DNA from: a phage
Length of the DNA stretch: 39,129 nt
Sequence record: PX309103.1
Reading direction: 5' to 3' (one strand)
A program made the translations under genes and the position numbers. Shown here one piece after another: positions 5,517 through 39,129 of this stretch. The notes below the pieces were generated by a model. It did not search any database. It was not told the origin of the DNA and saw only the letters and a list, made by a program, of their open reading frames with translations. The stretch's first letter is position 1. The number at the start of each line of letters is the position of its first letter.

Positions 5517-5541
5517 ACCCTAAACTATCACTATAGGATTA
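5517..5541 (+). promoter_or_regulatory. Phage RNAP promoter (phi1.1-like)
   Basis: TAAACTATCACTATAGGATT. Confidence 0.8.
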
Positions 5542-5546
5542 GACTC

Positions 5547-5573
5547 AAGGTCATGACTCAAAGTCGTGGCCTT
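5547..5573 (+). promoter_or_regulatory. Conserved hairpin, RNase III-site-like (R1.1 position)
   Basis: AAGGUCAUGAC / GUCGUGGCCUU 11-bp stem with G-U pairs and UCAAA loop; one of 3 copies of the same element. Confidence 0.6.
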
Positions 5574-5611
5574 CATGATTAACCCTAACTCATTCAATCA
5601 GGAGCTACACC

Positions 5612-10343: not shown

Positions 10344-10559
10344 ATGATTAAACTTATTGAATTTCTTGGTCGTCTGGTGGTGCGTGGTTATCGTCGTGCT
10401 GCGGTACTGGAACGAAAGGTAGAAAAGAAGACTGCTGACAGTGCGGCTGATGCTGCTGCTCTGGCTGACAAGCTAACAATAGCGTCACTGGAAGCTGGCA
10501 TGAAGGCACGTCAAGCTGACACCAAAGCTGACCAGTTGGCTCAGTTCTTCAAAGCCTAA
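10344..10559 (+). CDS. Hypothetical Ala-rich protein (71 aa)
   Basis: ORF with strong RBS AAAGGAGA. Confidence 0.5.
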   Translation: MIKLIEFLGRLVVRGYRRAAVLERKVEKKTADSAADAAALADKLTIASLEAGMKARQADTKADQLAQFFKA

Positions 10560-10577
10560 ACTATCACCTTAGGGATG
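10555..10577 (+). promoter_or_regulatory. Phage RNAP promoter variant upstream of gene 4
   Basis: TAAACTATCACCTTAGGGAT; two mismatches to the consensus core. Confidence 0.45.
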
Positions 10578-12339: not shown

Positions 12340-12504
12340 TTGCTAAGAAAACTTAAAGCTCGCTACCATCGGTTCATGTACAAATGGTGGAGCGATGAAG
12401 CAACCTGCCTGTCAAGCATTATAGGAGAACAGAGGTTCGACTCTAAGGCATGGAAGAAAGCTAACCGGAAGTTTATGTATCACTTCTTGCGTACAGACTT
12501 CTAG
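12340..12504 (+). CDS. Hypothetical small basic protein (54 aa), TTG start
   Basis: AGGAGG 6 nt upstream of TTG at 12340; the ORF-track 12307 start lies inside gene 4. Confidence 0.4.
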
Positions 12505-12514
12505 GTCTAGACTC

Positions 12515-12539
12515 AAGGTCATTCACATCGAGTGGCCTT
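12515..12539 (+). promoter_or_regulatory. Conserved hairpin, RNase III-site-like (R4.7 position)
   Basis: AAGGUCAUUC / GAGUGGCCUU stem; same flanks (AGACTCAAGGTC ... TTTATGATTAGAC) as the 5547 and 35956 copies. Confidence 0.6.
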
Positions 12540-12567
12540 TATGATTAGACTAAACGGAGGATTAACC

Positions 12568-14739
12568 ATGTTTGACCTTAAGAGTATCTGGGGTTCTGAC
12601 ATAGAGACCAACGGTCTCCTTGATACAGTCTCCCAGTTTCACTGTGGGGTCCTGATTAACGCCGAGTCGAATGAGACCCTTAAGTATGGGGTAGCTCCGA
12701 TGGTCGGTATCGTCGGTGGCTTCAAAGAGTATGTACAGAAGGTGGAAGAGATTGCCGCATCACCTGATGGTATGCTGGTATTCCACAACGGTATCAACTA
12801 TGACGTCCCGGCTATTGACAAGCTGAAGCGTCTGTACTTTGGGAAACGCTTTAACTTCCCGAAACACAAGATGATTGATACCTTGGTGCTGGGACGCTTG
12901 ATGTATCCAAACATTAAGTTCTCAGACATGGGCGCAGTGAAAGCTGGTCGTCTGCCACCTAAGATGATGGGACGCCAGTCTCTTGAGGCTTGGGGTTATC
13001 GTCTCGGTGAGATGAAAGGTGAGTACAAACACGATTACGTTGCCAAGTGCAAGGCTGAAGGTATCGAATATAAGGCTGGGGACGAATGGTTGTTCCCGTC
13101 TCAGGAGATGCTGGACTATAACGTTCAAGACGTTGTGGTCACACTGTCGTTGTTCAAGAAGTTCCTGACTGACAAGTATTACTTCCAGTCTGAACAGTTC
13201 GCTTTCGACCAGATTTATGCGTTGCGTCTGGAACATGATGCTGCGTGGACCTGTGCGAAGATGGAGCGTAACGGCTATCCGATGAACACCGAGATGGTCG
13301 AAGGCTTATATCGTGAACTAACCGTCAAACGTGCAGAGCTGTTGGACAAGCTGCGTTCGACTTTTGGTAGCTGGTATGCACCGAAGGGAGGCAAGGAGTT
13401 CTTCAGGCACCCACGGACAGGAAAGGACCTCCCGAAGTATCCACGAGTCGTGTATCCTAAGGTCGGTGGCATCTTTAAGAAGCCGAAGAACAAAGCTCAA
13501 CGCTTAGGTCTGGAGCCTTGCGAGTTCGACTCACGAGACACGATGGAGGGAGCGCCGTTCACACCCATCACTTACGTTGAGTTTAATCCGGGAAGCGGGG
13601 ACCACTTAGCGAAAGTTCTGATGGAGCGTGGCTGGGAGCCTGTGGACTTCACTGACACCGGGAAACCTGTAGTCGATGACGAGACGTTAGAACACGTTAA
13701 GTTACCGGACGCAGAGGCTCAGGCTTGCGTAGAGCTGGTCCGTGAGTATCTGGTAGTCCAGAAGCGCATAGGTCAGGCTGCTGAAGGTAAGAACGCATGG
13801 TTGAAACTTGTAGGTCCAGACGGACGTATGCACGGTTCAATCAACCCATGCGGGGCAGTAACTGGACGTGCTACTCACAGTTCACCAAACATGGCTCAGG
13901 TCCCTGCTAACGGTGCTCCGTATGGTGAGATTTGCCGTGGTGCTTTCGGTGCAGCTTGGAACAAGACGGATGGTAAGCCAGACCCTTGGATTCAAGTAGG
14001 TGTGGATGCTTCAGGTCTTGAGCTTCGTTGTCTGGGGAACCGAGCGGCTCCGTTTGATGGCGGTGCCTATGCGAAGACTGTGGTAGAAGGTGACATCCAC
14101 TGGGCCAACGCAGTAAACGCTGGGTTAGCACCTAACGTCCCACGCGATAAGTCGAACCACGACCATGATGCTTTCCGTAACAACGCTAAGACGTTCATCT
14201 ATGCGTTCCTGTATGGTGCAGGGGCCGCTAAGATTGGACTGATAGTAGGCGGTGGGAAGAAGGAAGGTTCAGCTCTCATGAAGAAATTCATTGAGGGTAC
14301 ACCAGCCATCAAAGACCTCAGGGAAGCTGTGAGTAGTACGTTAATCTCAGACTCTAAGTGGGTGGACGGAGAGAATATCGTCAAGTGGAAACGCCGTTGG
14401 TTGCGTGGACTTGATGGTCGCCGTATCCACATCCGGTCTCCACACTCAGCACTGAACGCCTTACTTCAGGGTGACGGTGCGGTAGTCTGTAAGCACTGGA
14501 TTGTCGAGACTGAACGTATGCTTGAAGAGGCAGGGTATGTTCACGGATGGGAAGGTGACTTTGCGTACATGGCTTGGGTGCATGATGAATTGCAGATTGC
14601 GTGTCGTACTCAGGAGATTGCCGAAGAAGTCGTCAAGATTGCGCAACTTGCTATGCGTAAGGTGGGTGAGTTCTATAACTTTAAATGTGTCCTTGATACC
14701 GAAGGTAAGATTGGACCAACGTGGAAGGAGTGTCACTAA
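12568..14739 (+). CDS. DNA polymerase (gp5 family, Pol I-like with 3'-5' exonuclease)
   Basis: Strong T7 gp5 similarity (SDIETNGLL exo motif, KYPRVVYPKVGGIFKKPKNKAQR, AVTGRATHS, DASGLELRCL, YMAWVHDELQ); start at ATG 12568 with GGAGG RBS. Confidence 0.96.
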   Translation: MFDLKSIWGSDIETNGLLDTVSQFHCGVLINAESNETLKYGVAPMVGIVGGFKEYVQKVEEIAASPDGMLVFHNGINYDVPAIDKLKRLYFGKRFNFPKHKMIDTLVLGRLMYPNIKFSDMGAVKAGRLPPKMMGRQSLEAWGYRLGEMKGEYKHDYVAKCKAEGIEYKAGDEWLFPSQEMLDYNVQDVVVTLSLFKKFLTDKYYFQSEQFAFDQIYALRLEHDAAWTCAKMERNGYPMNTEMVEGLYRELTVKRAELLDKLRSTFGSWYAPKGGKEFFRHPRTGKDLPKYPRVVYPKVGGIFKKPKNKAQRLGLEPCEFDSRDTMEGAPFTPITYVEFNPGSGDHLAKVLMERGWEPVDFTDTGKPVVDDETLEHVKLPDAEAQACVELVREYLVVQKRIGQAAEGKNAWLKLVGPDGRMHGSINPCGAVTGRATHSSPNMAQVPANGAPYGEICRGAFGAAWNKTDGKPDPWIQVGVDASGLELRCLGNRAAPFDGGAYAKTVVEGDIHWANAVNAGLAPNVPRDKSNHDHDAFRNNAKTFIYAFLYGAGAAKIGLIVGGGKKEGSALMKKFIEGTPAIKDLREAVSSTLISDSKWVDGENIVKWKRRWLRGLDGRRIHIRSPHSALNALLQGDGAVVCKHWIVETERMLEEAGYVHGWEGDFAYMAWVHDELQIACRTQEIAEEVVKIAQLAMRKVGEFYNFKCVLDTEGKIGPTWKECH

Positions 14740-14897
14740 TGGCTAAAACTTATAGCGAGCAGGAGGTCAAAGACCTGATGCGGTCAGCTTGGTGGTGTGG
14801 ACACGAGGAGTCTCGTTATAGTCCAAACCTCAGTGGACAGTGCAGTAGAGACATTCGTGAAATTCTGAAAGAACATAACGAAGAAGGAGAAGACTAA
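14739..14897 (+). CDS. Hypothetical small protein (52 aa)
   Basis: ORF coupled at both ends by TAATG overlaps. Confidence 0.4.
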   Translation: MAKTYSEQEVKDLMRSAWWCGHEESRYSPNLSGQCSRDIREILKEHNEEGED

Positions 14898-15181
14898 TGG
14901 CTATTACTAAACGTATTCGTGTAAGTTTCGACCTGAAGATGGTTGTCAGCTCAAAGGAAGAAGATACCATGTGTCGCCAACTGGCTGAGAGGACTAAAGC
15001 CTACGCTGAGGGCGAGAAGCTGGATGGACTTCAGTTGGCTCTGGTCAAAGCAGCAATCGAATCAGGCCCTGAGTCTGCCATTGAAATTGTCGCCAAGAAG
15101 ATCATCAAGGAGGAGCTGGTAGAGGCCTTTGGTGAGGGTCAGTTAGGTGTGTCCAACCTGCGATTCGAGGTCAAGCAATGA
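14897..15181 (+). CDS. gp5.5-like protein (possible H-NS-binding family)
   Basis: 94 aa; N-terminus MAITKRIRVSFDL resembles recalled T7 gp5.5; assignment tentative. Confidence 0.5.
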   Translation: MAITKRIRVSFDLKMVVSSKEEDTMCRQLAERTKAYAEGEKLDGLQLALVKAAIESGPESAIEIVAKKIIKEELVEAFGEGQLGVSNLRFEVKQ

Positions 15182-15387
15182 GTGAATACTTACGGGTCCT
15201 AGCGGCCCTTAAGTCCTGCCCGAAGACCTTCCAGTCCAACTATGTGCGCAATAACGCTGCACTTGTGGCTGAGGCTGCGAGTCGTGGACATCTAAGCTGC
15301 CTGTCTATGGATGGGCGTAACAACGGTGCGTGGGAGATTACCGCTGCTGGCACCAAGTTCCTGAACCAACATGGAGGCTGTTTATGA
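15178..15387 (+). CDS. gp5.7-like protein
   Basis: LKSCPKTFQSNYVRNNAALVAEAASRGHLSC matches recalled T7 gp5.7. Confidence 0.8.
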   Translation: MSEYLRVLAALKSCPKTFQSNYVRNNAALVAEAASRGHLSCLSMDGRNNGAWEITAAGTKFLNQHGGCL

Positions 15388-15602
15388 GTCAAGACGTATC
15401 AGGCAGAGAACTTAAGGTAGGTCAAAAAGTTGCTTTCTGCCTAGCTGGTAAGTCATACGCTATGTGTATAGGCAAAGTCGTCCGGGTAATGCCAAAGACG
15501 GTAGCCATCAAACACGAGACGTATGACCGCTGGAAGGGAATGACCGAGGAAGTCGAAACGGTACGTGCCTTCTCTTCAGTTTGCATCGTTGAGGAGGCAT
15601 AA
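15384..15602 (+). CDS. Hypothetical protein (72 aa) at the gp5.9 position
   Basis: Start ATG 15384 with GGAGG RBS; not acidic and unlike recalled T7 gp5.9. Confidence 0.5.
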   Translation: MSQDVSGRELKVGQKVAFCLAGKSYAMCIGKVVRVMPKTVAIKHETYDRWKGMTEEVETVRAFSSVCIVEEA

Positions 15603-16468
15603 TGTCAGAGAAGAAAATAGCTCTGGTTCTGGATGGTGACTATCTGGTCTTCTCTTCTATGGCTGCTGCCGAGGACGAGACAGACTGGGGCGATGACATC
15701 TGGACCCTTATCTGCGATCATGCAAAGGCTCGTCGTATCCTTGAGAACACCATCGCTGAAATCGTTAAGAAGCGCAAGGCGTGGAAAGACGCTAAGATTG
15801 TTATGTGCTTTACTGACGATAACAACTGGCGCAAGGACGTACTTCCTACCTATAAGGCTAACCGTAAGGGTTCTCGCAAGCCTGTAGGTTACAAGAAGTT
15901 CGTAGCCGAAGTGATGGCTGACCCACGGTTCAACAGCTTCCTACGTCCCACGCTTGAGGGTGATGACTGTATGGGTATCATCGGGACCAGACCTCAGATT
16001 GTCGGATGTGACCATGCGGTTCTGGTGTCCTGTGATAAGGACTTCAAGACCATCCCGAACTGTGAGTTCTTCTGGTTAACCACTGGTGAAATCCTAAGTC
16101 ATACGACTGCTGAGGCAGACTACTGGCACATGGAGCAGACCATCAAGGGTGATACTACAGATGGCTACGGTGGCATTCCTGGAATGGGTGAGGACACCAC
16201 TCGTGTATTCCTTGACGAGCCGTACTACTTCGTGCAGGAGAGCCGTGAGCTTAAGACTGGCAAGAACAAAGGCCAGATTAAGACTGAGTGGAAGAAGTAT
16301 CCGAAGCGTGAAGACATGACGCTGTGGGACTGCATGGTTACACTGGCTGCTAAGGCTGGAATGACCGAGGAGGAACTTCTGGTCCAAGCTCAGGTCGCTC
16401 GTATTTGTCGAGCCTCCGACTATGACCCTAAGTCCAAGGAGGTCATCCTGTGGACACCATCCATGTAA
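15602..16468 (+). CDS. 5'-3' exonuclease (gp6 family)
   Basis: 288 aa; DHAKARRILE, YKANRKG, CDKDFKTIPNCEFFW, TIKGDTTDGY, LWDC match T7 gp6. Confidence 0.93.
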   Translation: MSEKKIALVLDGDYLVFSSMAAAEDETDWGDDIWTLICDHAKARRILENTIAEIVKKRKAWKDAKIVMCFTDDNNWRKDVLPTYKANRKGSRKPVGYKKFVAEVMADPRFNSFLRPTLEGDDCMGIIGTRPQIVGCDHAVLVSCDKDFKTIPNCEFFWLTTGEILSHTTAEADYWHMEQTIKGDTTDGYGGIPGMGEDTTRVFLDEPYYFVQESRELKTGKNKGQIKTEWKKYPKREDMTLWDCMVTLAAKAGMTEEELLVQAQVARICRASDYDPKSKEVILWTPSM

Positions 16469-16595
16469 TATACTGGGCCGGACTTCTGGCCCTTTACTGC
16501 ATGTACAAGTGGTTCGGGTCGAACAACCGGCCTAAACACTGAGTCTAACCGATAGTCATATCCTATCAATCCAACAGTCATCCATAGGTGAAACA

Positions 16596-16618
16596 CTAAA
16601 CTATCACTATAGGGACTT
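16596..16618 (+). promoter_or_regulatory. Phage RNAP promoter (phi6.5-like)
   Basis: TAAACTATCACTATAGGGACT. Confidence 0.85.
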
Positions 16619-35684: not shown

Positions 35685-35944
35685 CGCAGATGGACTTAGA
35701 GAAGTTCCTCTTGATGCTTGATACTGAGCGTGCTCGACTTATGCTGCAAGACTTGCGGGATGACACTAAGCGTTCACCTCAGCTCTATAACGCCATTGAG
35801 AAGCTGCTTGCTCGTCACAACTTTGTGTTAAGTAAGGTGTCTATGGACGAGAAGACGCTGGCTGATATGGAGGCCCTGAACGCAGAGTACGATAAGGTGC
35901 TTTCAGCGACTGAGGATAATGACACAGGGTATGGTGTTCAATAA
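35681..35944 (+). CDS. Terminase small subunit / DNA maturation protein A (gp18 family)
   Basis: RSPQLYNAIEKLLARH matches T7 gp18. Confidence 0.88.
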   Translation: MTQMDLEKFLLMLDTERARLMLQDLRDDTKRSPQLYNAIEKLLARHNFVLSKVSMDEKTLADMEALNAEYDKVLSATEDNDTGYGVQ

Positions 35945-35955
35945 GTGTTAGACTC

Positions 35956-35982
35956 AAGGTCATTACTATATGTAGTGGCCTT
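35956..35982 (+). promoter_or_regulatory. Conserved hairpin, RNase III-site-like (R18.5 position)
   Basis: AAGGUCAUUAC / GUAGUGGCCUU stem with UAUAU loop; third copy of the conserved element. Confidence 0.6.
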
Positions 35983-36045
35983 TATGGTTAACACTAACTA
36001 GTGGAGGCGACTCTACGTGAAATCTGATAAACCGGGAGGGCAACT

Positions 36046-38949: not shown

Positions 38950-39129
38950 TCTCACAGTTCAAGAACCTCAAGTCTCCCCATAGGCCCTCTTTAAGTCCAG
39001 ACCAAAGGCCCTACCCCCAGTCTATCATAAGGTTGGACCGATGGTCAAGACTTCAGGTCGACGATAGGTCTAGGCTATGGCTGGAGGTTAGACGATAGGT
39101 AGGGGCTATAGGTCTGTCTCTGTGTCTCT
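38950..39129. repeat. Right direct terminal repeat (180 bp), identical to 1-180
   Basis: Read directly from sequence. Confidence 0.95.

Follow-up and report, generated by a model that had tools for sequence, protein, structure and literature searches.

Phage sequence record PX309103.1, a stretch of 39,129 nucleotides (nt) referred to here as the window, is a complete genome of the K1F-like (Kayfunavirus) group of the T7 family. Between its DNA polymerase gene (gene 5) and its exonuclease gene (gene 6) lie four small genes, called w52, w94, w69 and w72 (Table 1), and this report is concerned mainly with the last of them. In T7 the corresponding position is held by gene 5.9, whose product is a DNA mimic that inhibits RecBCD and MukBEF. 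Here, we report that w72 is evolutionarily unrelated to gp5.9, that it is predicted to be a free-standing SH3-like beta-barrel of the Tudor/KOW type, and that the slot between genes 5.7 and 6 is a recombination hot spot in which at least six unrelated families of small genes, gp5.9 included, alternate or stack. These structural and evolutionary parts of the explanation are held with high confidence. The functional part, by which w72 would act on its own as a module binding a host protein or nucleic acid, is given an even chance, and the explanation as a whole, combining a mosaic slot, an unrelated barrel and a host-interaction binding module, is one that we favour with moderate confidence.

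An unrelated barrel at the gp5.9 position

The charge of w72 is opposite to that of T7 gp5.9, with an isoelectric point (pI) of 8.5 and a charge of +1.6 as against a pI of 4.1 and a charge of -8.5. BLAST detected no similarity between the two proteins. The Pfam family PF25708 (Phage_T7_Gp5_9) gave no match to w72 at E<=1 and none to its close homologues at E<=10, although the positive controls scored 27.7 bits (T7-type gp5.9) and 55.8 bits (slot family C4). When the w72 family (30 sequences) was aligned with the gp5.9 family (13 sequences) by hhalign the resulting probability was 0.05%. Hidden Markov models (HMMs) of T7-type and C4-type gp5.9 were also run against 1093 open reading frames (ORFs) from the six frames of the window, and with a best E of 0.16 the genome is thus without a recognisable gp5.9 anywhere. 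An earlier note on this DNA had described the 72-residue product as neither acidic nor similar to gp5.9 and had pointed to sequence comparison as the way in which a divergent gp5.9 might still come to light; its description agrees with all of these results, and the comparison, now carried out, revealed no homology. The idea that w72 is nonetheless a true but highly diverged gp5.9 has its position between genes 5.7 and 6 as its one argument. It is opposed by the null searches and by structure, the model of w72 being an all-beta barrel and solved gp5.9 a parallel coiled coil (PMC9836394), and we regard its probability as negligible.

The AlphaFold2 model of w72, built from the family alignment, reached a predicted local distance difference test (pLDDT) score of 92.9 and arranges five beta-strands in an all-beta barrel. 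The five-stranded SH3-like barrel by which KOW domains are recognised is present in this model. A Foldseek search with it placed three ribosomal barrels (eL21, eL14 and eL27) at the top and gave nothing at E<=0.001, and the significant matches in a viral structure library were unnamed or labelled 'uncharacterized'. Identity to SH3-like barrels (Tudor of Sgf29 and SMN, KOW of Spt5/NusG, and eL21/eL14/eL27) was 9-21%, and w72, with its 72 amino acids (aa), stands alone and is not part of a larger factor.

Judged by its profile match, w72 is a further member of an existing, uncharacterised and phage-restricted family, PHROG 2251 (E 7.7e-22, residues 2-71 on profile positions 2-71 of 74). The family examples include PAK_P100165c of PAK_P1 and PJG4_034 of JG004, both Pseudomonas phages, and QNJ49148 of Escherichia phage Mt1B1_P3. 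A homologue in Escherichia phage P762 is 97% identical, and identities of 96-97% were found to deposited unnamed phage proteins; Pakpunavirus homologues are 42-49% identical over their full length, and among full-length homologues identities of 34-49% were seen. By tblastn the family was found in 207 phage records; 172 come from Pseudomonas phages (mostly myophages of the genus Pakpunavirus) and the rest from T7-like phages of enterobacteria, and the family occurs also in a Warsawvirus. Searched exhaustively with HMMER, a set of 1.84 billion representatives gave only 29 relatives, mostly of 63-84 aa, the exceptions being a few longer proteins with an extra domain, repeat proteins of low complexity and one eukaryotic protein with Tudor-like repeats. 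Profile and sequence searches of Protein Data Bank (PDB) sequences gave insignificant matches only. Close homologues carry the precomputed Pfam label PF23835, which was absent from the local Pfam results and appeared in no paper found. The literature likewise yielded nothing on the w72 family or on how K1F-like phages might evade RecBCD.

The w72 family is under purifying selection, with a ratio of nonsynonymous to synonymous substitution (dN/dS) of about 0.1. Against diverged homologues the ratio was 0.10-0.11 for w72 and 0.25 for w52, and these low values indicate that both are real genes and not chance ORFs. The family is mildly basic (median pI 8.9, median charge +2), which makes DNA mimicry unlikely, and w72 would accordingly act by some means other than mimicry.

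A mosaic slot between genes 5.7 and 6

The content of the slot was surveyed in 82 loci, comprising 80 IMG/VR loci fetched by way of gp5.7, together with K1F and the window. Families were assigned by family HMM; single-linkage BLAST merges the barrel family with one unrelated acidic family through tails that they share. The slot was empty in about 28 of the 82 loci, K1F among them. Where it was filled, the barrel family of w72 was found in 23 loci, a basic family of 54-58 aa (C1) in 16, an acidic family of 68-149 aa (C3) in eight, an acidic family with the motif DGDWTD in another eight, and true gp5.9-family genes in seven. One locus also carried a 42-aa Cys-rich ORF, and in some loci several families were stacked. 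In K1F-like and Klebsiella T7-like phages no other family fills the slot as often as the barrel family. One of the gp5.9-family genes has an exact counterpart (100% identity) in Cronobacter phage GW1 and is homologous to gp5.9 of phiYeO3-12 and to genes annotated as RecBCD inhibitors.

Contig L068 (IMGVR_UViG_2974612379_000001) carries at 2007-2546 a tandem of barrel (68 aa), C1 (54 aa) and gp5.9-family (55 aa) genes, and since barrel and gp5.9 stand there side by side they are not simple alternatives. The earlier note had spoken of gp5.9 as apparently replaced. That is correct in respect of position but is not supported as a substitution of one gene for the other, given the empty slot in K1F, the small share of gp5.9-family genes and the presence of both families in L068.

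Nucleotide homology between the window and its relatives breaks at 14745, ~14885, ~15165, ~15390 and ~15606. These positions coincide with the gene junctions, so that each small gene can be regarded as an independent mosaic module. In the cluster the gp5.5-like gene and gp5.7, two conserved genes of host takeover, have on either side an optional cassette of a single gene, inserted exactly at a junction. The junction of polymerase and gene 5.5 is a second and less used slot, which is empty in 59 of 79 related loci, holds w52 in eight and in some others holds HNH endonucleases or a gp5.3-like gene.

Otherwise unrelated slot proteins (L003, L005, L017, L018, L021 and others) were seen to share the C-terminal tails ..MAKGGLDDGF/C and ..KLLAATVPAMSKAKAVSDE. 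These tails are encoded in a conserved junction module, the last ~45 nt before gene 6, which also holds the ribosome-binding site and start codon of gene 6. A reading of the ..GGLDDGF tails as mimics of the tails of gp2.5 and gp4, which are acidic and end in Phe, was rejected on account of this origin in the junction module. The C3 proteins (L003, L005, L018, L019, L021, L033, L040, L065, L069) reach a charge of -16. A stretch of their sequence, LMSHLNxEDNxMAxEF, is similar to the N-terminal region of the longer slot proteins of the gp5.9 family (HMM E 3e-6 to 3e-4), and the C3 proteins may be relatives of gp5.9 that have been fused or extended. The proteins of the DGDWTD family (L008, L011, L057, L062, L064, L079, L080, L081) have 94-121 aa, a pI of ~4.6 and the motif DGDWTD..HKSE.K.DIVKH...RTGDHWQGYETEF, and they are possible DNA-mimic candidates.

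Possible roles of the barrel

In the explanation favoured here, w72 would be made as an accessory protein in the middle phase, together with the replication genes, and as a small module would attach to a protein or nucleic acid of the host in the service of host takeover or counter-defence. Several observations weigh against this binding-module function. A fold as generic as the SH3-like barrel pinpoints no ligand, and every source name in the family is 'hypothetical' or 'uncharacterised'. Pfam gave no KOW or Tudor match for w72 at E<=1, leaving the KOW motif undetected; a comparison of the family with E. coli NusG by hhalign gave a probability of 0.5%; and an aromatic cage is not conserved, F18 being the sole aromatic residue kept in at least 60% of the 30 family members. 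Because these three tests were negative, w72 can be said to share the SH3-like fold but not to be a demonstrable member of the KOW or Tudor families. Genomic context adds no conserved partner gene in the two phages compared: the homologue in JG004 adjoins genes for dCMP deaminase and DNA ligase, and that in Warsawvirus 3MF5 lies between ligase and dNMP kinase. Finally, the slot is shared with gp5.9-family genes, and the same host hub might be reached by another mechanism.

A rival proposal is that w72 is a functional analogue of gp5.9. It would bind directly to RecBCD, or to a different target of gp5.9 such as MukBEF, and inhibit it without mimicry. Its position and overlapping stop/start junctions are identical to those of T7 gene 5.9, true gp5.9-family genes do occupy the slot in some related loci, and non-mimic modulators of RecBCD such as Abc2 are known (PMC9836394). 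Yet w72 is basic and all-beta, barrel and gp5.9-family genes are stacked in L068, the homologues in Pakpunavirus and Warsawvirus lie in unrelated contexts, and gp5.9 is itself dispensable in T7 (PMC7617805). Moreover, the slot is often empty or filled by four other unrelated families, and for this reason position in it is a weak clue to function. Taken together, we consider such an analogue unlikely.

The most specific form of the binding-module idea takes up the proximity of w72 to gp5.5 and gp5.7 and would make w72 a decoy of bacterial Tudor/KOW modules, for example the C-terminal domain of NusG or the Tudor-like domains of Mfd, UvrD and RapA. A decoy of this kind would bind host RNA polymerase, Rho or S10 and aid transcription shut-off beside gp5.5 and gp5.7. 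Fold similarity and this adjacency are its whole basis, and the adjacency is set by the location of the slot and is not kept in other phages. With weak Pfam matches that stay below threshold, in addition to the null results for Pfam KOW and NusG, the decoy seems to us rather improbable. A broader idea, which we offer tentatively and consider doubtful, is that the w72 family represents a new class of small non-mimic phage inhibitor docking on a hub of DNA-end processing or transcription. Candidate hubs may be RecBCD, a defence guarding RecBCD, RNA polymerase, NusG or Rho, and accessory slots may be the route by which Enterobacteria and Pseudomonas phages trade the inhibitor, whether in place of gp5.9 or in addition to it.

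As to RecBCD itself, this phage, like K1F, most likely lacks a dedicated inhibitor of the gp5.9 type. Ten further small proteins were compared with the PHROG profiles; they included ocr-like, gp1.2-like dGTPase inhibitor and gp2-like RNA polymerase inhibitor proteins and none of the other known RecBCD inhibitors. The earlier note had considered that RecBCD might be countered by another gene, a suggestion that found no support, and nothing was found that links w72 or w52 to RecBCD. Because gp5.9 is dispensable in T7, a phage lacking it needs no other counter-measure. Its presence also sets off retron Ec48 (PMC9836394), and for these two reasons the lack of gp5.9 is plausible and perhaps even advantageous.

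The case is therefore one of ordinary phage mosaicism with one candidate host-interaction gene, and mosaic accessory slots in T7-like phages are already familiar. It does correct an expectation derived from the T7 annotation, in that K1F-like phages need no gp5.9 homologue and a gene at the gp5.9 position does not warrant the label of RecBCD inhibitor from synteny alone. Correct labelling matters for host-range prediction, gp5.9 being a trigger of abortive defences, retron Ec48 among them (PMC9836394). Only gp5.9 is characterised among the at least six families of the slot, which offer a shortlist of candidate host-interaction genes, and if the barrel were an inhibitor of a host factor, the 5.7/6 junction would be a compact and easily surveyed site for counter-defence genes.

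The cluster, its genome and comparison with T7 and K1F

The coordinates of the cluster and of the promoters around it are collected in Table 1. The earlier note had recognised four tightly coupled small genes between polymerase and exonuclease, with which coordinates, overlaps and Shine-Dalgarno sequences all agree. The stop of the polymerase gene overlaps the start of w52 in TAATG (14737-14741), and the following junctions are TAATG for w52/w94 (14895-14899), ATGA for w94/w69 (15178-15181), ATGA for w69/w72 (15384-15387) and TAATG for w72/gene 6 (15600-15604), giving overlaps of 1 or 4 nt at all five. Each start is preceded at 6-10 nt by a Shine-Dalgarno sequence, in order GGAAGGAG, AAGGAG, GAGGT, GGAGG and GAGGAGG. 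All four small ORFs match a phage protein family (PHROG), and none of them has a match in NCBIfam.

Table 1. Genes of the cluster and phage promoters in the window
Feature	Position	Strand	Remarks
DNA polymerase (gene 5)	12532..14739	+	735-aa ORF; same annotation in all close relatives
w52	14739..14897	+	52 aa; PHROG 20928
w94, gp5.5-like	14897..15181	+	94 aa; PHROG 1452
w69, gp5.7	15178..15387	+	69 aa; T7 gp5.7 homology, PHROG 1334
w72	15384..15602	+	72 aa; PHROG 2251; slot of T7 gene 5.9
Exonuclease (gene 6)	15602..16468	+	51% identity to T7 gp6 over 285 aa, E 2e-107
Closest promoter 5' of the cluster	10553..10574	+	CTAAACTATCACTATAGG(A/G) copy; defines the transcription unit
First promoter 3' of gene 6	16593-16614		CTAAACTATCACTATAGG(A/G) copy
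All promoter copies (starts)	2440, 5517, 7245, 8186, 10553, 16593, 19420, 20408, 24813, 32089, 38348		

The first gene of the cluster, w52, which the earlier note had left without an assignment, has PHROG 20928, a family of unknown function, as its sole PHROG match (E 1.7e-33). It was found in 8 of 79 related loci, and homologues include gene 1.5 of K1E, near the ocr-like gene of that phage, as well as proteins of unrelated phages. The protein is acidic (pI 4.9, net charge -5.3) with an acidic C-terminal tail. Its conserved motif is AWWxGHExSRYxPN, with variable cysteines, and the positions conserved in the family (W18, G21, H22, S25, Y27, P29) are aromatic or polar and not acidic. A profile search of PDB sequences found nothing. 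The possibility that w52, and not w72, is the gp5.9 equivalent, a small acidic helical DNA mimic blocking RecBCD, draws on this acidity, on a length equal to that of T7 gp5.9 (52 aa) and on a predicted helical structure. Alignment with the gp5.9 family by hhalign, however, gave a probability of 0.9%, and Pfam, PF25708 included, no match at E<=1. The AlphaFold2 model, of low confidence (pLDDT 66), is a helix-loop-helix and not a single long coiled-coil helix, and the acidic tail is shorter or absent in distant homologues. The gene lies at the opposite end of the cluster and is missing in 71 of the 79 loci, and we judge that it is very unlikely to be a gp5.9 equivalent.

The two inner genes bear out the earlier assignments. 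The gene read as possibly gp5.5-like encodes a protein, w94, that matches PHROG 1452 ('Gp5.5-like host HNS inhibition') over its full length with E 5.9e-26 and T7 gp5.5 with 23% identity (E 1e-5), and is a homologue of that H-NS antagonist. As no Pfam match was found at E<=1 it is a distant member. By nucleotide homology the gene exists as two allelic types among the relatives, and K1F carries the other type. The gp5.7 protein w69, described as clearly conserved, is 77% identical to T7 gp5.7 over 69/69 residues (E 5.6e-41) and matches PHROG 1334 (E 7e-39); from this homology it would be expected to inhibit sigma-S RNA polymerase. Over 14897-15387 the relative frames of the gp5.5-like and gp5.7 genes are those of T7, which has an annotated 5.5-5.7 fusion product, and both halves match PHROG 17900, a fusion family of 170 aa.

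An exact direct terminal repeat of 180 nt (1-180 = 38950-39129) shows that the genome is complete and of the linear T7 type, and identity to Escherichia phages of the genus Kayfunavirus, pO2 and phiYIO1-1 among them, is ~95%. The promoter of the phage RNA polymerase occurs in 11 copies of 22 nt each. No copy lies between 10553 and 16593, from which it follows that genes 4 and 5, the four small genes and gene 6 form one transcription unit. A conserved element of ~50 nt, TAGnnTTAGACTCAAGGTCAT ... GTGGCCTTyATGrTTA, is present in three copies (5534-5590, 12502-12547 and 35943-35999), the second of which sits immediately 5' of the polymerase gene; by analogy with T7 these elements may be mRNA processing sites of the RNase III type. 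At 776-1285 the window encodes a strongly charged protein of 169 aa (charge -38, pI 4.1) that matches the ocr-like anti-restriction family PHROG 2568 (E 4e-56) and exceeds T7 Ocr in length.

Set beside K1F, the cluster has the same order of polymerase, 5.5, 5.7 and 6, and the gp5.7 genes are 95% identical in DNA. However, both w52 and w72 are missing from K1F, in which 5.5 directly follows the polymerase gene and gene 6 overlaps the stop of 5.7. A comparison with K1F had been proposed in the earlier note. The K1F polymerase (NC_007456, 12921-15690) is annotated as a join of two pieces split by an HNH endonuclease ORF, whereas that of the window is unbroken. T7 gp5.9 resembles w72 in being small, in lying between genes 5.7 and 6 with overlapping junctions and in its non-essential, accessory status, and true members of its family are found in the slot in sister phages, Cronobacter phage GW1 being one, and can co-occur with the w72 family, as in L068. 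In its nature, gp5.9 is different: it is a very acidic protein and a dimer, in which a parallel coiled coil is supported by an N-terminal beta-strand (PMC9836394), while w72 is basic and modelled as an all-beta barrel, and the two have neither sequence nor profile similarity.

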